The notes under the pieces: model-generated | What the model was told of the DNA's origin: nothing | Seen by the model: only the letters and a program-made list of their open reading frames with translations | Databases searched by the model: none | DNA from: Perna viridis | Taxonomy: Eukaryota | Length of the DNA: 64,000 nucleotides | NCBI GenBank assembly: GCA_037379345.1 | Contig: CM074511.1 | Coordinates: forward strand, 49,234,862 to 49,298,861 | Direction of reading: 5' to 3' | Shown: positions 1 through 57,316 of the stretch, one piece after another | Numbering within the stretch: position 1 is the first letter of the stretch | Layout: every line of letters begins with the position of its first letter | Translations under genes and position numbers: made by a program

Positions 1-79
1 CTTAGATTTACATCTTAGCCTGTAATTAAAGTGAAATCCTACCAGATAACCAAGTAAAATTGCTTATCGGTGATCAATT

Positions 80-114
80 CGCACCCCCATCCAGAAAACC
101 TGGCTACGGCCCTG
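80..114. mobile_element. Terminal fragment of a small non-autonomous DNA element
   Basis: gcacccccatccagaaaacctggctacggccctg resembles the CAGGG...CCCTG ends of common invertebrate hAT-like MITEs. Only one end is visible. Confidence 0.3.
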
Positions 115-2135
115 CTTCATTCAACACATACGAGTCTGAGAATTTGGGTTTTTTATCCGGGATTCTAAAGAATCTATGTCTGATAGTCATTTCGTTCAAG
201 TCTACTAGGTCATTTTCTGCTTTTATTCAGTAAGTTAAATAACGAAACAACTGTTGCTAATATCATGTTATATCGTGAACTATACCGTTGATACACATAT
301 TTTTGACATCCTTGTTTAAATCTTAACGGTTCAATCTTCGGTCGAGAGCCTAGCCGAAGTAGCACGAGGTTTCTGTTTTATACGTACGTCGTCATACACA
401 TTGAAATCATGCCTGAGCATGAACAAGTTGTGATAAAACCATAATTTACTGGCAATCATTCGTACTGTTTGGTTAGTATTGGTTGCTGTTTTTTTTTTTA
501 CTTTACTTACTCATGTTAAAATCACTTTACACCCAAGTTTTGTGTGTGTCAAGACTTTAGTATATGTACTGATATTTTATACAACAGTAGTTGGGATATC
601 AACAAGCCGTACCCATATTATGCTGTAAGGCAGCAAAGATTCCGAGGTAGTCTACAGGGATTGGCTATATCAGAACTTTGTTGTTTGTCAATGCCGAAAT
701 CCTGCTAAACCTTATTACAATCAACCACATAGTGTGAGAATGACGGATTTGTCACAATCACTTAAATTTTTTTCTTGACTGATCTTACACGTGACACTTC
801 GCACTTAATCCTGCATATCTGTTTATTTTATTAATTACCTAATTGACCAAGCATAATAAGTTATTATTAGGAAACCGTGGAATTACATGACAGATGGACG
901 AACAAGTGCCACGACCCCTATCAAGCACCCTGGAGGGTATGTAACACTCTCTGACTGTGTGGCAGGCTTACAGTTGTCAGGTTGTATGTCTAATCGTCTT
1001 TCCCTGTAGTATATCTAAGTATTGATATTTTTATCAAGATTTTGATAACTTTTCTGATCCTACTTTCCCTGCAGTTATCTGTAGTTAACAACCATACTAT
1101 TTGTTTTCTCGGGGTTTATGTTTATTTACTACATCTTATTCCGTGCATCAGTGCAACAAGACATTTTGTGGCGTCTGTAGGTTTTTGTTTTGTTTGTTGT
1201 TTTTTCTTCTGACAAAGCCCGGGTCAGTTTTGTCGTGGAGTTCCTGTTTTCTTTACGTAATCAATCTACATTATGCTTGTTGGTGCATTATTCTTCTGAA
1301 TATAAGTTTCAGTTAAAAATAAATGTATAGTTGTGTAAACATGTCTCATTCTTTGAGCGGGAATAATAAGAGGACGCTGTAAATAGATGTGTGTATTTAT
1401 TTTTTAGATTTAATACTGTGTTATATTATGAATGAGCCATGTATAACTCGACTTCAATTCGGAAAAACCAGATTTTTTGTTTGGTAAACCTGTTTCATTT
1501 ATATCGTCTTTGTTGAACATTTATAAATTAGATTTTATCGTAAATGTAAGTTTGTTTCAGTATCTTCATGACTTACCCATATCCGTATTCACAAAATAAA
1601 TCATTTATGAAATCAAGCAAATTTCGTGGCTAGACGTTCGAGATGCCTGTCTGAAGGGTTAACTTGTCTCATTTTACTACATTTTGATGGCTTACTAAAG
1701 GCAACGAAAGGCAGATGACTCCTTGTGACCTCGCAGCATTTGAAAAATACACTGACGTGCATTTCTTGTAGATGAAGATCACTTCTGATTTCATGATATT
1801 TTACACTTATTCATGTTTAAAAATTTTCACAGAAGACATCATTTCTGATACATTTACGTACGGACTTATTTACGACAAATACTCATTTAATTGTAATGAA
1901 AAAGTGTAGGTGAAATTTAAACCATTCCTCTTAAATTTGTGGGTTAAAATTACTAAATGCACTGATCAATGTCATGTCTTTAAAATTTATCTGATCTCAC
2001 TTCAGAACTATAGAAGTATTATTTATGAACTTCCGATCCTGCTGTTTGACACGTAAATGTACATAAACATGTATTCATGTTTGTATATTAGATCGCTGAA
2101 CCATAAGTACATAGATATATCAGAAATGACAAGTC

Positions 2136-2177
2136 TGATTGACAGGCCCATGGGCGGGGCTTGTAAATGTAAACAAT
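2136..2177. promoter_or_regulatory. Compact motif module just downstream of SoxC
   Basis: TGATTGACAG (Pbx-Meis/Prep decamer, 2136-2145), GGGCGGGGC (Sp/KLF, 2152-2160), and GTAAACAA (Fox) overlapping AACAAT (Sox, 2172-2177). Confidence 0.45.
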
Positions 2178-2224
2178 ATGCAGACTAGGTAAGCGTGTTC
2201 GAGGATAAAAATAAACAAGAGAAA

Positions 2225-3088
2225 AACATTTGTATATTATAAATTGTTGTATTTTTTTCTACAACATAACATGTAAAATGACATACAAATAAAGAATTTG
2301 CGAATGTCATCATGTACAAAGTAATATTGGCCTTCGATGCCGGATATTTCCATCATTTTAAATCGTTGGTAATGGTATCAAATATAGATTAAGTAAAAAC
2401 AATCGCGAAAACATTTATATTATCAACAAATAAGTCACTTATATATAGCACAAATAAATAATCACTTTCTGTACAGTCTGTCTTACACCCTATACAAAAA
2501 TCTATCTTCATGCAAAACGTTCCCACAAAATACTTTACTGGCGTCTTTATACGATTTTTTAGAAAAAAATATGGCATAAATTGTTCAATCGCTTTGCACT
2601 GAGGTCAGGTAAAATCTCATACGTTCATTGCAAAATTTACAAAAAATGGAAGGGTATTGTAATACTTCGCTGAAGAAAAAATATGTACAATTTGAGTCCC
2701 TGCATTGAATGGAATAATTTGTGATGAATTTTGAATGAATGACCAATGATGTGATGATAGAAACGCAAGTTGAAAATGAAAATTATCTCTACCTGGGTTA
2801 GTCGGCAAATACCGATGTAATATCCAATGCTGTGAGAATGCCTGAACTGATATGCATAGACAACTATATAATGCGGTTATATATGATTTCACACCACTTA
2901 TTTACATTTTCACAACTCGTAATTTCAAGAAAAATGATTATAAAATGATATAAATTGTGTTCAAACACACTAAAATATATACTGGTCCTCATTAAATTCT
3001 TCCGACAGTTATTCCTCCCATGAACATATTTTCATCACTTTGCTTTTAAGTAATTTGCACATCGTCCCGTATAAAGCACATTTTCGTG
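2225..3088 (-). other. Probable SoxC 3' UTR
   Basis: U-rich on the minus strand. Variant poly(A) signal AATACA (minus 2253-2248) is followed by a GT/T-rich tract (tgtttttctcttgtttattttt). Two Pumilio elements TGTAHATA at 2682-2689 and 2899-2906. Confidence 0.5.
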
Positions 3089-4111
3089 TCAATGAGCAGC
3101 AATCGAACTTAGCACACCAATGTCCATCCACTCATTCTCTAGTCCAATGATTTCGGAAACTTCTGGCGTGGAATAATCTGGGAATTCAAAATGTGATCCG
3201 TTGCTGGAGGTTGAAGAAGCACTACTTGAAACATTGTTATTCTGAATGTCACCAAAATTTGGAAAGTCAGCATCAGTAAGATTTCTCAAGTCCAAATTTC
3301 CGAGTTCCATTTGCCAATTTGTCGGTAACTGTAACACATCAGTTAGATTGTCCAGATCAGCAAGTGAAGATCCGTCTCCCTGAGATACGTTGGAGTTTGT
3401 TTGATTCACGATATAAGGGGTTTGTGGACCCTTTGAGGGTTCTTCCTGAGGTGAAGCGGCTGGCGTGTCATAGATTTCCTCTGGATAAAAGCTGGTGGAT
3501 TCTGGAGTGGGTGGGGAATAAATGCTGGGACTGGACGGCACTTTTGCGGGTGGAGTAAGCTGACACGATGATACTGGTACAGCTCGACTTGCTTTAATAC
3601 TGTCTTTGAACTTTTTGTCAATTGTGAGTCTGAGTTTAATACGATTTGGCGAGTTATTGTCCATTTCAAATTCATTCTGAATAAAGTTCTTTGCAGCAAT
3701 TTTCTGCTTATTTCTTTCACTACGACTTTTTGAGAGAGATTTAGAAATCTTACCGGAATCAGTTTTGGTGACAGGCTTAGCCTTTTTCCTTGGTCTATAT
3801 TTATAGTCCGGGTATTCTTGCATGTGAAGCAAGCGTAGCCTCTCAGCCTCCTCAATATAAGGCTGTCGATCAGCTTCATTCAATAACTTCCAGCGTTTAC
3901 CAAGACGTTTAGAAATCTCGGCATTGTGCATGTCTGGTGACACTTCTGCTATTCTACGCCTCTCAATTTGAGACCACACCATAAATGCGTTCATAGGTCT
4001 TTTTACGTGATTTGATGCTTTTTTGCACTGAGTTGCGTCTGAGTATGGTGTATGAGTGTTAGGGTCAATCATCTGGGACCCGAATACCGTATTTCCGTTC
4101 TGAGGCACCAT
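3089..4111 (-). CDS. SoxC: SoxC-group HMG-box transcription factor (Sox4/11/12 orthologue), single exon, 340 aa
   Basis: HMG box [20 protein letters not shown]...[13 protein letters not shown]...[23 protein letters not shown] (~3782-4009) with the SoxC-type WSQIERR. C-terminal [18 protein letters not shown] matches the Sox4/11 transactivation motif. Start placed at ATG 4111 (context CAAC-ATG-G, MVPQ...) rather than the GTG at 4144 used by the ORF track. No introns. Confidence 0.97.
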
Positions 4112-4269
4112 GTTGAAATAAATAATATCACAAAAATATATCACTAAAAGTATGAAAGCGATTTATAGATCCAGTGTTAATCCAGTTTAACGTGAAAGCC
4201 TTCTTTCGAAGACTCGCACAGAAGTTTGACAATACCTTACAAGCTGAACACTTTTTAAAATTCTGATTT

Positions 4270-4372
4270 CAAAACTGAAGCTTATCGGTTTTATTCGACG
4301 TATGGCTCTTTGATCTTTTCTTAACCAATCGATTTCGGTAATATAAGTCCCTCCTTCTTGTGGGCGGGACTT
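4270..4372 (-). promoter_or_regulatory. Putative SoxC core promoter
   Basis: GC box GGGCGGGAC (4362-4370), CCAAT box AACCAATC (~4323-4330) and initiator-like TTCAGTT on the minus strand (4279-4273). The ~165-nt leader from there to ATG 4111 contains no ATG. Confidence 0.55.
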
Positions 4373-4689
4373 AAACAACCATGTGTTTATCAGACCAGAA
4401 ATAACACAAAATTTATCAAGTTTGATCATTAGAGTCGACTAGTCTAGGAATATCAGGTACTACGACCGTATTCATGTATGACAATTAGACAAGTAGTTGC
4501 CATTTTGTAATAAAAACAAAGATGTACAATTAAAATAATCTCTAATTGTTAAGAAAACATACCTGTAATTATAATATTGAAAACTGAAACGTAAAGAATA
4601 CTTTATATTTCTGTGAATTTTAGCATACTCTATATAATGAGTCATATTGTGAAAATATAGAAATAAAATTACTTCTAGCTCGTCTTCGA

Positions 4690-5510
4690 ACGCGTGCATG
4701 ACTCATTTATTCTATAATTTGTGATAAGTTGCAGAACCAGAACACTCTCAACTCATCCAAAACCTTGTATATTTTGAGTAGTTGATAATGCTACAAGTCT
4801 GCGAGCACGTACTGGTTGAACAAATTATTTAGCTAGCTGACACCAGGTTCGTGGGAAAGGTTTGAATACACCTAGATTACAGCAGCAATTCTATCCCTAG
4901 GCAAATTACGGCACGCGACTTGTTCTAATTTACATTTCAAAGAGCACACGCAACGCATTTTAACGCACGTGTCTATTTAAATTGAAAAAGGGCTTCCAAC
5001 AAATCAAATGTCATTTTCTTTCCATTAAATTAAAATCATGTGATTGAATTTATTAAAATCAAGACGCGTGGAGGTACCTATTTTGTTAACCAAATAAGAA
5101 AATTCGATTTTCCAATTGATTTTGGTAGGTAAACAGGGTTCTCAAAAGAATTTGGGTACGACAGATGGTACTGTTTTTATGGGAAATGGAGGTAAGATTT
5201 AAGTTAGGGTCGCAGAAATTATCAAGAAATATAATTTCACGACAATCTATTTGAAAATTTCCGAGGTCTTTCGGGCATCATTTTTGGTAGATGAAAGAAG
5301 TTTCTGAATTTATTTAATGAAACTCACTTTAACTTGCAACTCGTAAGTAACCTTGTCTTCATGCAAAACATTCAAAATATTGGTAAATACTCCTTCAAAG
5401 GACCCTTGTGACGTCACGAGCAGGTGCAGGACTTGGTGTCAATTTTCTTAATGAAGGACCCAGGGCACGCGACTCTGGTGACAGCTGTAAGTTTAATCGA
5501 CCAATCACAA
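4690..5510. promoter_or_regulatory. SoxC proximal upstream regulatory region (Su(H), Hes class-C, proneural E-box and CRE sites)
   Basis: CGTGGGAA 4850-4857; GGCACGCGAC 4910-4919 and 5464-5473; further CACGCG at 4691 and 5065; TGACGTCA 5409-5416; GCAGGTG 5420-5426; ACAGCTG 5481-5487; ACAGATGG 5161-5168. Confidence 0.55.
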
Positions 5511-7203
5511 GACACTATTGCAAATGACAGATTTATCAAAATATTCTGAAATAAATCTTTTCCCTATGATATAAAAATATTTAACATTAAAAAAAAATAA
5601 GTGATAAGGTTCAACTGCTTTTTCCATTAGAAGGGTCCAGGGGGTTGAGAGTTACACGTTAATAAGTGCAAAGTCGGCCGACGACACCAAAACTTTCTTT
5701 TAAATTTACAGGGGTTTACATTTTTTTCGTTCAAAATGACTTGTAGTATATACTAGTCTAAACATACAATAAACTTTTGCTGAGAAATAATAGAGTGTGC
5801 ACTTCATGAATTGTTTACGTGGTCATCGTCGTTCGGGTTTATCAAAGAGACGAGCATTTACATATTAGGAAAGTTGAACAAGAGGCACACGACTAATGGT
5901 TCGCGACTAATACCCATTTTTGGAAATAATAACCAGGTAACGGGACCGTTTATATTTCATAACTGTCGAAAACACCTGTCGAAAAACCACAGCACGGCAC
6001 TTACACAAACACGAATGGGCTTCAATTTTGACTTATTTGTCTTATCGACCATCTGTCGCCCCCATTACAAATACTTTGATTTAGACGAAAGTTTTTCACG
6101 AAAACATGAGTAAATTGTTGAAAACAGATGTCGGGTGGACGTTTGATCTGAACTGTATGTAATTTACAATTCGAGATAATTTGTGAATATTTAATGAAAT
6201 TTTTATAATGGTAAATAGAATTTTATTACCTATACAGTATCACGTATTGTCCCCGAGTACAAATCACAAAATGTTACCGAGGTATGTGTCGCCTTATATA
6301 CCAAGAAACGACTATAAAATTGTGTTGTAACCTGATGCATTTCGGTACGGTAACATATGGTGCTTGTATTATAACTAATGTGAAAATATCGTCCCCCTTT
6401 TGAAGTGTTTTCTGTCAAATTGCCATTTTGGAAAAATAGTGATAACACAAGGTGGTATGTACCCACAACTAGGCTTGAACGGTCAAATTTCAACGCGTGG
6501 CAAATTTGCATATTTCTGGTTAATTTGCATTTTCTTGAATGGGTATATTTGGTTACCCAGTTTATTACGTGAAACAATTATACTAGTATATCATCGCACA
6601 TCATACTGTATTTGGGAAAAAAAGGAAATTTTATTTTCCCAGTACGTTTCCGACGACTGCAGTAAAAAGGGTGATTGGGTTGAATCATCTCAATAACTCA
6701 TCAAGCAGTCTTGCTTTGGAAAGCGTTGTACTGATGTAAATATATACTGGGTATACATCTTTACTAATTCAACTTATTGTGGTGTCCATATGCATGTAAG
6801 TACCAACGATACCATACTTTTCTTTATTCAAGTCAGATACCAAGTCCACAAGATAAGTGTAAAGAAAGATAGTCCATGGTGACCAAGTAAATGAGACTTA
6901 GAACGATGAGCTAATCGGTCCTCAACCCCGAACGATCAAGCGATGAACTAATAATGTAAGGAAACCAATTACTAAGTCGATTTTCCATCAAAGTTCCGGA
7001 TAAACTAAACAATTATTGATATTCTTCAGATTGCCCTTATAGCGTACTGTTCAACTCTACCAATAATTAGAACAATAGCCGATTTCTACAAGTTAATGCG
7101 ATATCTATCTGTATCGGATCGGTTAACCGACCTTACGATCATTTACCAAATCTTTATATTATCTACAAATTCATCATAGATTGTGGCCACCCCTCCTCCC
7201 CCA

Positions 7204-7285
7204 GAAAAAAACCAAAAAAAAAAAAAACCAAAACACAAAACACAAAACACAAAAACAAAAACAAAAACAAACAAAACCAACTAAA
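7204..7285. repeat. A-rich (CAAAA/CACAAAA)n low-complexity tract
   Basis: Directly visible. Confidence 0.85.
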
Positions 7286-7943
7286 CGTCACAGTGAGGTC
7301 CATAAGTGAAAATTACTGATATTTTCGGACATCAAAACTCATCTTCTGAGACCCAGCTGTCTGTGTACTTTACTTCAGAGACAAGCAATAAACGGTCGCT
7401 GCTCTAAGTTATAAACTTCCTCCATATGTTAAACATTAAACATCAAGTACATTTCTAGTTTTGCTGATATTATCAACATCTTTGTCATCCGATATTTGAT
7501 TTAAAAAGTAAATTTTTTGCTGTCGACGGCATGAATTCGCGTGCCATATGCTATTTGTTGAGGAAGTACGTTCCGGTTATTTGTGCGAAGAGGAGCGGTG
7601 TAGGTTGCACTTCCACTGTTAAGCAGGAGAGTTTCATTGTAGGCTAATGTCGGTATGTTTCTTGCGGACAGATAGAAAGTCTAATATATTAATATTAAAT
7701 TAAACGCCCAAAAACATATTCAGTTGACATATTTAGTTTTTTACAACACTTAACCAAACTTATCTAAAGCTCAGTATCAAACCTATCATTATAATGAGAA
7801 TAGGTATGGTGTATATGTCAAAGCAACAACAACCTCATCAGCATGAAAATGTCAACCCAAGGAATGTCTCTTTCTAGATATGCTAAGCAGAAACTCAGAA
7901 AACGATTCGTGACGGAGTCAGCCAAATGGTTATAGGAAATGGA

Positions 7944-7969
7944 ATATATATATATATATATATATATAT
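7944..7969. repeat. (AT)n microsatellite
   Basis: About 12-13 AT units. Confidence 0.95.
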
Positions 7970-10900
7970 TTTTATTAATATTATATAATTGAAAACTACT
8001 TGCCCTCAAACCTTTCCCAAGACTAATGAAATTGCAATTGCAAATTTCCCCTTGATGCCCCACTATCTTAGCATGAAAACACGCGACTTTATGGAACATG
8101 TCATGTGACTGCGGCAGGAAATTACAAATATTTTGAAGGAGATAAGAAAAGTCAATTACTTGGTAAGAAACGACTCTAAAATTTTTGGTACTTGCCCTTA
8201 ACAGCTGGTCTTGATATATTTCGTTGAAATAATGATCCCGTTCTGCACTGACACAAGACGGACCGACGATTAGATTCCACTTACAGAATTACAAACGATT
8301 CCTTGTGGCAGGCGAATAAACAGCCACGTGTATGAAATTTTACGAAGAGTTTTGATGTTTTGTAGATGCTTTAAAAGTTTTCATTCTCGATTGTTGAGCT
8401 ATTTTTTCAGAACGACCCGGAACTTCTTGAAGAGTCAGCAACCGACCTTGAATTAATAAACAAGTTTGTCGAAGCCTAATAGCAAACTAATTGTGTACAT
8501 GTTTTCAACAAAATCGATGACTCTCTTACGTAAACGCTGCGACAAGTTAAACAAATAAATTATTCTAAATCAGTGCGAACGTAAGACAGTAATTGGGGTA
8601 TTGACATGTCTTTTCTTAGCATGGGACTTACATGACACCGAATAGTGATGTTTTGGGGAAAGATCACACGCATACCCTATTGAACAGTTTAATGGCCCAG
8701 AACGGACATCGTTGTAAATGGACATCAGCCTATTGTTAACTTAATTCATGCATGATAAATCGTCTATTTCAAGTCACATGTGATTAAAGGAAGCGTTCAT
8801 GGAATATTAAAATCTGGCTTTTCTTCTTAACCCTTTGACCGTTTGAGGGCAGTTTGATGAACTAGACAGCTGCAATATGAACGTAGTTAGAAACCCTTTT
8901 TATAATCGAATCGTTTTTCGTGGTCATTATTGTTAACGCCAATTCCACAGTATTTCGGCACTACAACAACCAGATATTATCTACACATTTTTTAAGTAAA
9001 CGTGGTCAAATAATTCAATAAAAGACAGGCGATACACGCATAAGTAGTAAAATGGAATAACTTTATTATCTAATAGAATTTAACGCATTTTCTAAGTCAG
9101 GCATGTCGATAAGATGGATCAGAACTACTGCACGTTGCCCATTATTTTGCAGTGATACATCAAACTTGCATAATCAGCGCGTTATCGAACACAGAAACAT
9201 TAAAAAAATAATGGGCTTATACTGAAAAGTCACAAAAATGAAGATATTTATTTTCTTCAAAGCTATAGAAATCAGGACCGACTGAATTCAACGGGAAGCG
9301 AAATTTTTAATTGTGCTTCGATCTTAAAAAGGGCTTAGATGGTAAATTATCTTCACGGTGGACATTGACCTGCTTGTCTAATGTTAACTAAAGATTGTAA
9401 TCAATTTGTTCGTAGAGCTAAACGTACGTCAAACCAGAATCTACACACATGACATTCCAGTATTTAGATACATTACACCGGATATCCATCCAACCTGCAT
9501 GCATTGCGTTCGACCTACTTTTCGAATCGACTGTGGAGTTCGTTGCTCTTCCATGGCTTGTTAATTGATAGGGATAACTTGGCATTTCTTTTTATTATGG
9601 TAGGTCAACATCTATACCACATCTTCGCCAATAAAGTAATAGATACTTACGTGTTAAGGGTATATTTATTTGTAAATATATTGTACTATTTACACCTGAA
9701 AGTCAAATAGTTTGCCAAATGTTAACTGGCGGTTGCCCAAACAGGTTAGTTAGTTGCGTAAATCAACTGCTGTGCCCAGTCAATGACCACTTGGACGTTG
9801 TCAATATACAATAACCGAGCAACCATTTTGGGCATATATAGTAAGTATCTAGGAGTTATATAACTTATCATGCAAAAGAAACCAAACGAAACGACGTGCA
9901 AGTTTCACTTCTCAATCTTAACCCAGTCCCAAATAGTGTTGACCTAAATTGCATCCTGAGTAACTCGTCAAAACTATCTTTAATTCAAAATATCTTCAGT
10001 CCCCCGATTGGTACTGAATTGGTTTCACATAAGAGGGTCGTTCTACCAAAATCACCGGAAGCCGCAAAACATCTACTTGAGAATTGGAACAATGCGTGGA
10101 ATAAAGTCTTCGATCGGAGAAGTACACACTATGCACCGATCCAATCACATGTACCCCGGTATATTAGGTACATACGCAATTGATTTGAACGAGAAAATAG
10201 TGCAGATATCTTATAAAATCAGCGCCTAGACAAATATTGATTTAATATCCAACGGATTGTAATGCAAAAAGATGGGACACTACAGTAAAATAGTTATAAA
10301 AACTTCATAAACAATACTAATTATTCTGAAGTAAGCTTAAATTTGACAAATTACATCATAAACATCACCGACACGGATTTCTTGCCCTCTGAACCAGACA
10401 CATAGGATAGTACTTGGACCTTTTATGGTCATATTTCTAGACATACGTTCTCACTGCTGTCTTACTGTCTCTAAATGTCTGTAGTCTAAGTTATATTTAA
10501 AAATTACTATGAGTTACTAGTCTGCCTTTTCCTTAGTCTCGTCGTTGAAAGATTTTAAAAGTTTACACTTTAATTTTTTTCTTCCGTGATACAGCGTGTA
10601 AAATAAGTTTTGATGCTGAAAATTGAAGAAACGGTCACATGACCCTGTTGGGTTGCTGTTATTAATGACCTACCAAAACAACAGAATTTCTTCTAACCAG
10701 TAGAATATAATCAAAGACTGAAGTCTTCAAAATAGTTAATTGTTAAATATTTTATGCCACTGATTTTGGCTTGCTTTCAACATTCGAAATGGCACAAATA
10801 TAATATGCTCTAAAATCGGGTGACTTCCGCTAGAATCTTCGTTTCCTTGATATGATTACTCTCTCGTAACCGTGATGACCGGAATGTTTCTCAATCAAAA

Positions 10901-13122
10901 CAACTGGTTGCCGGGAAGTGCGGGTTATGTTTCCGTTCCACAAGTTTATCTCAACTTTTTAGCGATCTTTGGGTGGCTTGTGATATTGACCAAAGAACCA
11001 GATTAGGAACTAGATAAAACAACTGACAATGACTATTTCGGGGTCCTGGTAATGTTTATGACCTATATAGTCAATTGTAATGAGCCCATGTGTCTGAATC
11101 GGAAACTGGGTAATATTACATTTAGTTCGATGCTAACCGATCATTTAATCTTTTAATGTAAACTTCCCGTTTCATACAGGCAAAAACACACGTAGAACAC
11201 ATGTGAATGATATTAAAGATGTATACATTTTGATCTCGTATGAAGTTAGAATAGACGGTAAACACGGCTCTGATCAGCAGCATAATGTGGAGTAGTAATA
11301 TATAATTATTCGAATGTTAAGTGCAAGAAGTCGCTAACAATATTAGAGACTTAAGCAGTTCTCAGTATGGAATACTTTCACTCGTTGAATTTCGGCTACC
11401 CAATTTAAGCAGCCACAGCTTTCAAACCACAACAAAAACTGATAACGAATCATATCCGCGGTGTGAAAAAAGGCTACATTTCAATGCCCTTTGAACTGTT
11501 TGCGGACATTGACGGATGGGTCACACAAATTCACCAAAATTAATAAAATTTACGCCTGTGCACTCAACTCTGATGCTTTTATCGCTCAAGAATAAATAAA
11601 CGCGTTTAAATACAAGGAAACAGACATTTTATGTCTCTTAATTACTGATCTACTGGAAATGAAATATATGTATAAATAGTCTTTGTCTGAAAAGGTGCAA
11701 GATAGAAAACTATACATTTTTATTTGCATAAGATATAAATATGATAATAAAAAATACATTACATTGCGTAATGTCTCGAGATTGACGAATTCGTGAATCT
11801 TTCCCATTTTTTCAAGAGAATCATGCACGAAAAGTATATTTTTGAACTTCGTGACTCCAGTAAAAGGAAAAACAATCTGTCACTCAATCAGTACAAGATC
11901 GAAGTATAAAAAATAAGAAGGGTTAAAGGAGAATAATTTACTTTTTTCATAAATACAATTAATCTTTATAAAATATCATCTGATATATTACCGAATCTAC
12001 ACTTCACAGCCAAACATTTGTACATGAAAGAGAATATATTTGTCTACCTGTCAAAATAAAGAGCTATTTTTAATGACTTTAAAAATACGAGTTCTTATAA
12101 AAATAGAAAGTAAACATGCACATTTTTACAATTTTAAGCTGGAATGTGCACGATTTGAACAGTCATCTTTAAGAGGCATTATATTTCTATTATATTCGGT
12201 AGTCATTTTTGTAAATGATGAATTCCAAACCAATATCAGGATCGTGAGGAATTCTGAAAGAGATATCTAGAAAAATAGTGAAAATTAGGTTGAGACCTTC
12301 TGTTATCATATTAATTAAAAGCTGACTATAAACATGAACCAATGAAATGATCGAACCCAATGCTATGACTTCTATCTAGCTTGACCGGTACATACATGAT
12401 ATGATTACTTGTACCCATAAATAACAGTAAGTATAACTGCTGGTATACTACCATTTTGATTATTAATATTGACAATATTCTGTCAATGAATATATCTAGA
12501 GATTGTTAACGATTGTGGCCATACTTAAACTCCCTCCTCTGATCATAACAATTATTAGAAAATATTTGTCAACACTACCCCGGGCACTAACACTTGTGTC
12601 CTCATATTTATGGATGTGATAGAATCATTAAAGGCCAATAACGGCAAAACACTGTACGTTTTGGTTGATATCAAACACTATTAAAACATACGTGGATAAA
12701 AGCAAACAATTCTTACAAGTTGTTTTCTTATTATTTGGTTTTTTATCAAAGTGAAATACATATAGTCCATGATATTTAAACGACCATTTCACGTTTATGT
12801 AAAATGACAACGTCCTGTGGGTAGTTGGCGAATGTTCAAAAATCTGTTTGGTTGTACTTGGTACTTAAAGATCATGGGTCGATATCTCTTGACTTTGTTC
12901 AGACAGTCTGTTTTTTTTTTCTTCACTAAGACCAAGTGCTAATAGAATGCCAACTAGCAAAAGAGTAAGATTGCCTAAATGTAAATATGCTAATTGAGAA
13001 GCAAGTCAAATAAGCATGTAATACCTCCGGAATGGGATATGTATTATCAGCCCTTAGGCTGTAAAAGTGACAAATTAGTCACATTGTCTTTGGTGGCAAG
13101 TTGTGGAAGAGGTTTCATGGAC

Positions 13123-13233
13123 AAATAGAAAGAATTATCAATGGTTTGCCCAAACTAGGAAATAGAAAGAATTATCAATGGTTTGCCCAAACTAGGTAAT
13201 AGACAGAATTATCAATGGTTTGCCCAAACTAGG
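13123..13233. repeat. Tandem repeat, 37 bp x 3
   Basis: Unit aaatagaaagaattatcaatggtttgcccaaactagg starting at 13123, 13160 and 13197. Confidence 0.95.
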
Positions 13234-14475
13234 AAAAGAAACGTCTTGTATAAGTAAACGCAGCCCTGATAAAGGGATAATCATTTGGAGTTCGTACTTA
13301 ATATTTCTCCTGGTTAAAACTAAGATAAGAAAATGTTCTTGATTGCAAAAGCTTTCAAATGGGAACAAGAATTTGACAAGGACTATAAAGACCATATTTA
13401 AGTTCTTATCCTGATATATCATGTAAATAATGTTTCATGACAATATGACGATCTTTATATATATATATATTACCTTCCGTGGGAGATCCGTAAGGGCAGT
13501 CAAGGACGTTGAAACTCCCCATTGTAGTAGACTATCTCGTAACAACGCCAACCTAAGACTCAAATAGACCATGGACTTAAAATTTACATTCCAATACTAA
13601 CAAGTGGATATCAAGATTGAAAATCAAATTGCTCTGATCTTCACCAGTTTCTCCAGAGTGTGTAATATAAAACAAACAATACTGATCGAACAAAACTGAT
13701 CACCAATCACTAATCGGTCACAAATCAAATGGTAACCGATTGAAAAGCTCTATTAGTCGAACATATACCGATGATTTTGATGACTTATAGTGATCGATAT
13801 TTACTGTTTCGTGACCGGTTGTTACCACATCGTGCAATTCATTAGTCAGGAATAATTTAAGATGTCTGAAAAATACCTCTTCTCCATTTTAATGCAGTTA
13901 AATTCAAATATTTTGTTAAACCAATCAGTAATCAATCAGATTTAGAACAGGAAATTCTGATCAAATTCAAGGATCAATCTTTTTCATGAGTTAGATCGAC
14001 AAGTGTTCGAATAACAGAGCTTACCTATCAATTACCCGGTGATCGCATCGATCGATTCGACATGTCGGGTATAAAGTCCCCGTTTTTTTAATTTTAAATC
14101 TAAATCACCTATTAGTGGTAGGTAAAGCATTTTAGCATCATCTGAAGCCAAGCCAAACTTGTCTACAGGAAATGACATCAGGATGGTGTATTTTTTTTGG
14201 CCTTCTGGCACTGCTGAGTTAAATACTGCATCACAACCATAAAACCAAGAAAGTTCACTCACTAATTAATAATTTTCATTTGACACAACATGGGATTAAT
14301 GATATTAAGTACAGTTGAATTAGACAGAGTTAATTTTTGTGAGAAAATTTTCTTCTGCAGCTGTTTCTGACTTGTGTGTTTTTATAATTAAGTGCTATTT
14401 AGGCTAAGCTACAGTATATTGCCAACACATTCCTAATGGAATGTAGAAAATTAAAGATTGTCTTCACCTTGATCA

Positions 14476-56295: not shown

Positions 56296-57316
56296 TGGGC
56301 CAACAAGGGCAGGGTCACTTAGGACAGAGCTAACAATGGCTGGGCTAAAAAGGGCTGGGCCACTTGGGGCAGAGCTATCAAGGGCAGAACTAAGAAAGGC
56401 AGAGGTAACAAGCAAAGACCTAACAAGGGCAGAGCTAACAAGGACTGGGCCAACAAGGGCAGGCCGAGGGCAGAACTAACAAAGAAGAGCTAACAAGGGC
56501 AGGGCTAACAAGGACTGGGCCAACAAGGGTAGGCCAACAAGGGAAGAGCTAACAAGTGCAGAACTGACAAGGGAAGAGCTATCAAGGGCAGAACTGACAA
56601 GGACAGAGCTATCAAGGGCTGAACTAACAAGGGAAGAGCTAACAAGGGCAGAGCTAACAAGGACTGGGCCAATATGGGTAGGCCAACAAGGGCAGAACTA
56701 ACAAGGACAGAACTGACAAGAGCACGCGAACAAGGGCAGAGCTATCAAGGGCAGAGCTAACAAGGACTGGGTCAACAAGGACAGGCCAACAAGGGCACAA
56801 CTGACAAGGGCAGAGCTATCAAGGGCACAACTGACAAGGGAAGAGCTAACAAGGGCAGAACTAACAAGGGCAGAACTGACAAGGGAAGAACTAACAAGGG
56901 CAGAGCTAACAAGGACTGGACCAATATGGGTAGGCCAACAAGGATAGAACTAATAAGGGCAGAACTGACAAAAGCAGGTGAACAAGGGCAGAGCTATCAG
57001 GGGGAGAACTACCAAAGGCAGAGGTAACAAGGGCAGAGCTAACAAGGGCAGAACTAACAATGGAAGAGCTAACAAGGGCAGAGCTAACAAGGACTGGGCC
57101 AATAAGGGTAAGCCAACAAGGGCAGAACTAACAAGGACTGGGCCAATAAGGGCAAGGCCAACGAGGGCAGAACTAACAAGGGCAGGCGAACAAGGGCAGA
57201 GCTAAAAAGGGCAAGGCCAACAAGTGCAGAACTAACAAGGGCAGGCCAACAAGGGCAGAGCTAACAAGGGCAGGCCAACAAGGACAGATCCAATGAGGAC
57301 AGGGCAAACAAGGGCA
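56296..57316. repeat. Degenerate 14/15-bp purine-rich minisatellite with a ~252-bp higher-order period
   Basis: Unit aacaagggcagagct. Diagnostic variants recur 252 bp apart (aatatgggta at 56671 and 56923; gcgaacaag/gtgaacaag at 56726 and 56978). Confidence 0.95.

Follow-up and report, generated by a model that had tools for sequence, protein, structure and literature searches.

Is the SoxC gene of the bivalve Perna viridis wired directly into lateral inhibition, and through which sites would such control act? In other animals SoxC is a regulator associated with neural precursors. The Perna gene lies in a 64,000-nucleotide stretch of contig CM074511.1 (assembly GCA_037379345.1; hereafter the window, numbered from its first base), and an initial annotation had read its upstream DNA as a code of proneural activation, Hes repression and direct Su(H) input. 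Our analysis argues for the Hes part and marks the region as a strong candidate for Hes-repressed control. The 4 kb upstream of SoxC hold a dense, single-copy array of class C sites (CACGCG), likely bound by Hes/Hey proteins that would silence SoxC in Notch-receiving cells, a proposal drawn from sequence in which our confidence is evenly divided. The enrichment of the sites, their flanks, the specificity of the word and the presence of the same 10-mer at achaete-scute-like genes all favour Hes repression, while direct Su(H) input is not well supported.

A cluster of class C sites upstream of SoxC

SoxC is a single-exon open reading frame on the minus strand (3089-4111, 340 amino acids, HMG box at residues 36-104). 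Its protein has an HMG box with SoxC-type flanks and a C-terminal tail, and its relatives are named SoxC, Sox4 or Sox11, the best named ones being bivalve Sox11/SoxC (74% to Pinctada Sox11), as befits a member of the SoxC group (Sox4/11/12). The transcript is unspliced and covers 2233-4244 on the minus strand; two stranded RNA runs (raw reads of X21 and X22) and two contig sets, including a contig of run X11, span this interval without a splice joint. The read 5' end is at about 4244, with seven molecules of run X22 stopping at 4243, and the raw reads have zero depth over 4306-7581; the true start may be some tens of bases farther upstream, though still short of 4306. In the motif map, the read 5' end is preceded by a CCAAT box (4323-4331) at about 80 bases and a GC box (4362-4367) at about 120 bases, presumably the proximal promoter motifs of SoxC (4323-4367). 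SoxC is the nearest candidate target of the array, because the next promoter-like CpG-rich spot (read by eye) comes only near 14,050 and faces away from SoxC.

CACGCG occurs eight times in the window, with seven copies within 4691-8085 and the eighth at 56723. The initial annotation had listed these seven at coordinates that proved exact (4691-, 4912+, 5065-, 5466+, 6494-, 7538-, 8080+, the sign giving the strand), and they sit 447 to 3836 bases upstream of the read SoxC 5' end. Two of them belong to the same 11-mer of the high-affinity type, GGCACGCGACT, found on the plus strand at 4910-4920 (-666) and 5464-5474 (-1220), and a third site, GGCACGCGA, lies on the minus strand at 7537-7545 (-3293); both the identity of the pair and the third site had been claimed before and stood up to checking. 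The others are TGCACGCGTT (4691-4696, minus strand, -447), TCCACGCGTC (5065-5070, minus strand, -821), GCCACGCGTT (6494-6499, minus strand, -2250) and AACACGCGAC (8078-8087, plus strand, -3836). The earlier count did not include a class B site, CACGTG (GCACGTGTC), at 4966-4971, which is also a bHLH-R core; a one-mismatch copy of the 10-mer, GGCACACGAC, lies on the plus strand at 5884-5893.

CACGYG is a repressor core (PMC6070291), and the Hairy consensus is ggCACGCG(A/C)C (PMC449821). The Hairy probe from Drosophila achaete contains the 10-mer GGCACGCGAC, which SoxC has twice within 1.3 kb of its transcript start, at 4910 and 5464, so that sites of the consensus form stand near the promoter. 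Cognate bHLH-Orange WRPW repressors are encoded in the genome, namely three Hes proteins, each with WRPW and the proline of the basic region, along with one Hey protein with YRPW.

Enrichment over background

The observed/expected ratio of CpG is about 1 over positions 1-12,000 of the window and depleted in the remainder. With CpG depleted past about 13 kb, only the first part of the window gives a fair background, for which we took positions 1-13,000 as training sequence; a whole-window background was rejected as misleading for the same reason, and an order-3 model trained on the span itself (2.5 expected) was rejected as circular. Under Markov models of orders 0-3, 0.25-0.70 CACGCG are expected in 3.4 kb, in line with the initial estimate of well under one, and the probability of at least seven is 1e-8 to 9e-6. 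The comparison with a CpG-matched background that had been suggested at the outset therefore gives strong enrichment, and CACGCG tops all hexamers in the span with a lead of over two orders of magnitude. So as not to fit the span to the sites, we also took a fixed 4 kb starting at the RNA 5' end and reaching upstream; it holds seven CACGCG, vs 0.42 expected.

For an empirical control we took 10-kb stretches of the same genome beside bHLH, Hes, Sox and homeobox matches; these stretches begin at the domain match and not at a mapped start. In the gene-adjacent 4 kb of 59 control transcription-factor loci, CACGCG is found 0 (35 loci), 1 (17), 2 (6) or 3 (1) times. The best 3.4-kb count in 80 control stretches is 0 (33), 1 (28), 2 (11), 3 (6) or 4 (2), vs seven at SoxC. 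Sixty further stretches, 55 of them with a perfect 10-mer, reach at most three per 3.4 kb, as do 14 more that include Delta/Jagged-type loci; the maximum over all 154 other stretches of the genome is four. The runners-up to SoxC are NeuroD, a bHLH gene where CAGGTG is frequent and Su(H) sites number five, the achaete-scute-like genes and Hey.

This excess lies outside repeats. No repeat match was found over any SoxC site by blast against 170 stretches of the same genome or with profiles of the three repeat families that bear the 10-mer, and genome searches with the array region gave matches only at an A-rich simple repeat (7187-7293) and a dispersed repeat of about 80 bases (7779-7872), among the best 40 of 1709 candidates in one search and 19 of 19 in the second. 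Neither repeat overlaps a class C site. We rejected a repeat origin of the cluster on these grounds, the sites being single-copy and free of repeat overlap in genome, blast and profile searches. The 7537 site briefly resembles a repeat end, as it has 13-14 bases in common with the end of an inverted-repeat element elsewhere; its surrounding 300 bases are single-copy, and it may be a transposon-end relic.

The 10-mer elsewhere in the genome

GGCACGCGAC occurs 63 times in the 723-Mb genome, vs 23 times for the reversed control. No two of these 63 lie closer together than the SoxC pair, at 554 bases, and two perfect 10-mers in 3.4 kb are expected about 0.0006 times. Among 100 of the 297 listed 9-mers (contigs C1-C4), SoxC has the only triple within 3.4 kb. 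The exact 10-mer also stands upstream of three of seven genes that we take to be achaete-scute-like, reading their bHLH sequences by family signatures and not by database names, with four copies in the cluster of such genes on C6. Other copies lie upstream of Hes/Hey genes, and the class C motif more generally is found upstream of the genome's NeuroD, Hes/Hey and Delta/Jagged-type genes. Away from SoxC, 6 of 38 non-repeat 10-mers have an E-box within 50 bases, vs a background of 3.3%. Pfam domains in 119 open frames close to 10-mer sites formed a mixed list with no clear class.

Several of these loci are rich in sites in their own right. The cluster at G000:C6 15.57-15.79 Mb comprises five achaete-scute-like bHLH genes, four of them with a class C site that precedes the bHLH by about 0.3-0.5 kb, and the DNA upstream of NeuroD (L121) has four class C sites in 430 bases, at about -2150 to -2570. 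The richest Notch/proneural code among the loci examined is upstream of a bHLH gene at G000:C1 35.12 Mb (L127), with ten CAGGTG in 3.4 kb, five Su(H) sites and four class C sites. A repeated Hes/Su(H)/proneural module is seen at G000:C12 4.03-4.06 Mb, where a WRPW Hes gene has three copies of GGCACGCGAC in its upstream DNA, 13 kb apart (L125, 2439 from its end; L237, 4996; L238, 4996); within 100 bases of each copy stand a Su(H) site and an E-box. Two Delta/Jagged-type genes (L251, 9508-9519; L253, 8680-9093) have GGCACGCG ahead of their MNNL exon, at a distance of about 0.5-1.3 kb, and the second also has seven RCAGGTG.

Perfect Hes-type sites also occur within repeat families (L201, L245, L228, L239 and others at about 4996; L257 at 4801-5191). 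In one family GGCACGCGAC forms the very first bases, and both ends of an inverted-repeat element bear GGCACGCGA. Of the 63 genomic 10-mers, 23 lie in repeat families, and mobile elements may therefore be spreading Hes sites through this genome.

Proposed repression in Notch-receiving cells

In the control that we propose, Delta from a selected precursor would activate Notch in neighbouring cells, and Su(H) would there drive the Hes genes, upstream of which its sites abound. Hes dimers would bind the array, recruit Groucho via WRPW and silence SoxC; the binding and the recruitment are steps that we infer. In the selected cell, activators of a compact module at 5400-5510 (E-box factors, NF-Y and a binder of the cAMP response element) would keep SoxC on, and SoxC would be left on in the cells selected as neural precursors. 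The neural lateral-inhibition setting is borrowed by analogy from echinoderms. In sea urchins, soxc fails to become confined to single precursors under DAPT, and SoxC is an activator of ac/sc (PMC9629743); in euechinoids, HesC represses soxC as part of the skeletogenic double-negative gate (PMC4709884).

HesC repression in that gate (PMC4709884) is the best ground for an alternative in which the Hes/Hey sites serve patterning outside Notch lateral inhibition, through hairy- or HesC-type repression in the mesoderm, the shell field or early lineages. The motif cannot separate the three Hes proteins and Hey, and SoxC is expressed in both raw RNA runs (tissue unspecified), which would suit this alternative as well. 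We nevertheless regard it as rather unlikely, given that the motif gathers at neurogenic genes of this genome, that the Hes genes themselves are rich in upstream Su(H) sites and that E-boxes flank the 5464 site.

These E-boxes bear on the proneural activation that the initial annotation had added to Hes repression. Its two RCAGSTG E-boxes, at 5420 and 5481, are present, and others lie at 5973 and 7354. There are six in 10 kb at SoxC, a number that 4 of 60 control stretches also reach; within the 4 kb next to the transcript, CAGCTG occurs three times vs 0.36 expected and CAGGTG twice vs 0.96 expected. In the motif map, the compact candidate module consists of TGACGTCA at 5409, an N-box (CACGAG) at 5415, an E-box (GCAGGTG) at 5420, GGCACGCGACT at 5464-5474, an E-box (ACAGCTGT) at 5481 and a CCAAT box at 5499. 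Two E-boxes within 60 bases of GGCACGCG are found at only 2 of the 82 sites examined, some of the fetched stretches overlapping. With the 5420 and 5481 E-boxes flanking the 5464 repressor site, the module is, on its motifs, the best candidate for a 'proneural plus repressor' (P+R) enhancer. Proneural input is possible only at this module (5420-5488); the overall E-box count is mildly raised and not clearly above background, and in the urchin it is SoxC that activates ac/sc and not the reverse (PMC9629743).

Two further features of the module may be mentioned. Near SoxC, GGACCC ranks second in enrichment among hexamers (5400, 5456 and 5633; also 3426, 4076 and 11041), and three of its copies (AAGGACCC, TGGACCCT) surround the module. 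NF-Y-type CCAAT boxes stand both in the promoter (4323) and in the module (5499); in an acoel, NF-Y drives soxC, which together with hes and a notch-like gene is a marker of progenitors (PMC11260127).

Su(H) input

The optimal Su(H)/CSL motif noted initially is indeed present (CGTGGGAA, 4850-4857, plus strand), as a single, unpaired site and the only one in the window. At least one YGTGRGAA occurs in 27 of 60 control stretches, and the exact CGTGGGAA in 1 of 60. The three WRPW Hes genes have 4-6 Su(H) sites per 10 kb, vs one upstream of SoxC. A search for paired Su(H) sites found none upstream of SoxC, and the same pattern found none at the Hes genes, so that this negative comes without a positive control. 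SoxC has neither the several nor the paired Su(H) sites by which direct Notch targets of the Su(H)-plus-proneural (S+P) or Su(H) paired-site (SPS) kind are recognised.

The full three-input code, with Su(H) acting directly on SoxC by default repression or by Notch-on activation, seems to us improbable on this motif evidence. It can draw on the rarity of the optimal motif, seen at one control locus and expected 0.04-0.07 times in 3.4 kb, on its place 60 bases from the 4910 site and on the three 10-mers upstream of a Hes gene, which also have a Su(H) site within 50 bases; a lone, unpaired site near background is nonetheless a poor match for the 4-6 at the Hes genes, and activation by Su(H) would oppose repression by Hes. 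Judging from these motifs, Notch most likely acts via Hes and not directly via the lone Su(H) site.

Which factor reads the motif

Related words help to tell which factor is involved. CACGCG can also be bound as a non-canonical site by bHLH-ZIP factors of the Myc/Max type, AhR/ARNT prefers TNGCGTG and CAMTA prefers a CGCG box. In the fixed 4 kb, seven of the eight CGCG cores are CACGCG, and the sister words are at or below expectation (CACGCA 1, CACGCT 0, CACGCC 0, CACGTG 1, CCGCG 0, GCGCG 0), which points to Hes/Hey. The 5' flank is GG in three of the seven SoxC sites vs 2 of 57 control sites. Together, word specificity and flanks fit Hes/Hey better than AhR/ARNT, CAMTA or Myc.

That one of these other factors, Myc/Max-type, AhR/ARNT or CAMTA, reads the motif is, on such preferences, quite improbable. 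Four of the seven sites do fit TNGCGTG, and three contain ACGCGT (3 vs 0.36 expected), but neither CACGTG nor CACGCA/T/C is enriched, CCGCG and GCGCG are absent, four of the seven sites misfit vCGCGb and only CACGCG covers all seven. We consider it very improbable that the array is a functionless chance cluster in unmethylated DNA, made in part of decayed transposon ends: some hexamer is equally enriched in 7 of 140 masked loci, and the 10-mer is carried by repeat families, one starting exactly at it and one with an end resembling the 7537 site over 13-14 bases, but the word that leads here is an established repressor motif flanked by GG as expected, the perfect pair 554 bases apart is far beyond expectation and no repeat match covers any site.

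Comparison with other SoxC loci

A metagenome scan yielded 80 SoxC-type loci, none clearly molluscan; 45 with less than 1 kb upstream and five near-duplicates were dropped, and 30 were kept. Many of these are, by our reading, divergent paralogues or sponge- or arthropod-like. One annelid-like locus, closest to Paralvinella SoxC (L031; 59%), has five CACGCG vs 1.22 expected (P 0.008, not significant over 30 loci), two of them with the CACGCGACT tail seen at Perna SoxC, and another (L058) has two vs 0.18 expected, one of them GGCACGCGCC, also not significant over 30 loci. A longer motif, RCACGCGMC (7 vs 2.0 in the 30 loci), was set aside, having been chosen after the data were seen.

Several results weigh against Hes repression of SoxC in lateral inhibition. 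Over the 30 loci, CACGCG totals 28 vs 33.5 expected, and no upstream region aligns with the window (15 regions, short matches only, best expect value 0.033). When any hexamer may be chosen, a smaller P is reached in 7 of 140 loci repeat-masked and 20 of 140 unmasked; because some loci have such hexamers, the weight of the case rests on CACGCG being an established motif. The AC on the 3' side does not exceed controls (3 of 7 vs 12 of 57). The genome-wide excess of the 10-mer (63 vs 23) is partly due to repeats, since 23 of the 63 copies, sorted by their flanks, fall in three repeat families. Lastly, the documented Hes repression of soxC in urchins is skeletogenic and non-neural (PMC4709884).

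Relation to known systems

A link from Hes to achaete-scute is said to be conserved, as Rebeiz et al. reportedly described in 2005, and the Perna genome has the same 10-mer upstream of its achaete-scute-like genes. Unlike in that link, the putative target here is an HMG-box Sox gene, with seven class C sites in 3.4 kb vs at most three at the achaete-scute-like loci examined. The module at 5400-5510 resembles the Drosophila P+R enhancers of neur, phyl, nvy and sens, which have CACGYG beside RCAGSTG (PMC6070291). Those enhancers are established by conservation over 12 genomes, electrophoretic mobility shift assays and mutant reporters, whereas the SoxC module is known from sequence alone, and at SoxC the repressor sites outnumber the proneural ones. 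S+P Notch-target enhancers and the Su(H) paired sites of E(spl)/Hes genes share with SoxC an optimal Su(H) motif and E-boxes, but the SoxC motif is single and unpaired, whereas the Hes genes of this genome have several.

The closest likeness in logic is to sea urchin soxC, where Delta/Notch restricts soxC in apical neural precursors (PMC9629743), much as Notch/Hes is predicted here to turn SoxC off in non-selected cells. The urchin link differs in that it comes from perturbation, with no binding sites given in the text available, in that SoxC is upstream of ac/sc and in that it concerns another phylum (PMC9629743, PMC4709884). Both Notch restriction and HesC repression of soxC have thus been reported in urchins (PMC9629743, PMC4709884), and the surprise is moderate because the logic itself is familiar. 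A literature search over listings and the starts of abstracts, with most subscription papers outside it, found no Hes sites at a mollusc SoxC and none mapped at any SoxC; the control logic is known and the instance appears new.

More broadly, we would tentatively suggest, while leaning against it, that SoxC is, like achaete-scute, an ancient direct Hes target, the link being kept through class C arrays in animals as far apart as molluscs, annelids and echinoderms; SoxC would then be a core output of lateral inhibition, in this bivalve guarded more than the proneural genes. If Hes repression of SoxC is true, the link from Hes to proneural genes would take in a second class of genes. Few neurogenic enhancers have been mapped in spiralians, and the SoxC region offers exact candidate sites (4910, 5464 and the 5400-5510 module) and a simple comparative prediction for every mollusc genome.

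Other features of the window

A low-level spliced RNA on the plus strand (5128-6931) runs away from SoxC through the array, with exon pieces at 5128-5189 and 6831-6931. It is represented by one contig of run X13, with a GT..AG joint and good donor and acceptor, and may be a divergent non-coding RNA whose start lies close to the 4900-5100 sites. Rfam gave no match over positions 1-14,000 of the window. From about 14,050 to 64,000, the window is a CpG-depleted gene body, probably methylated.

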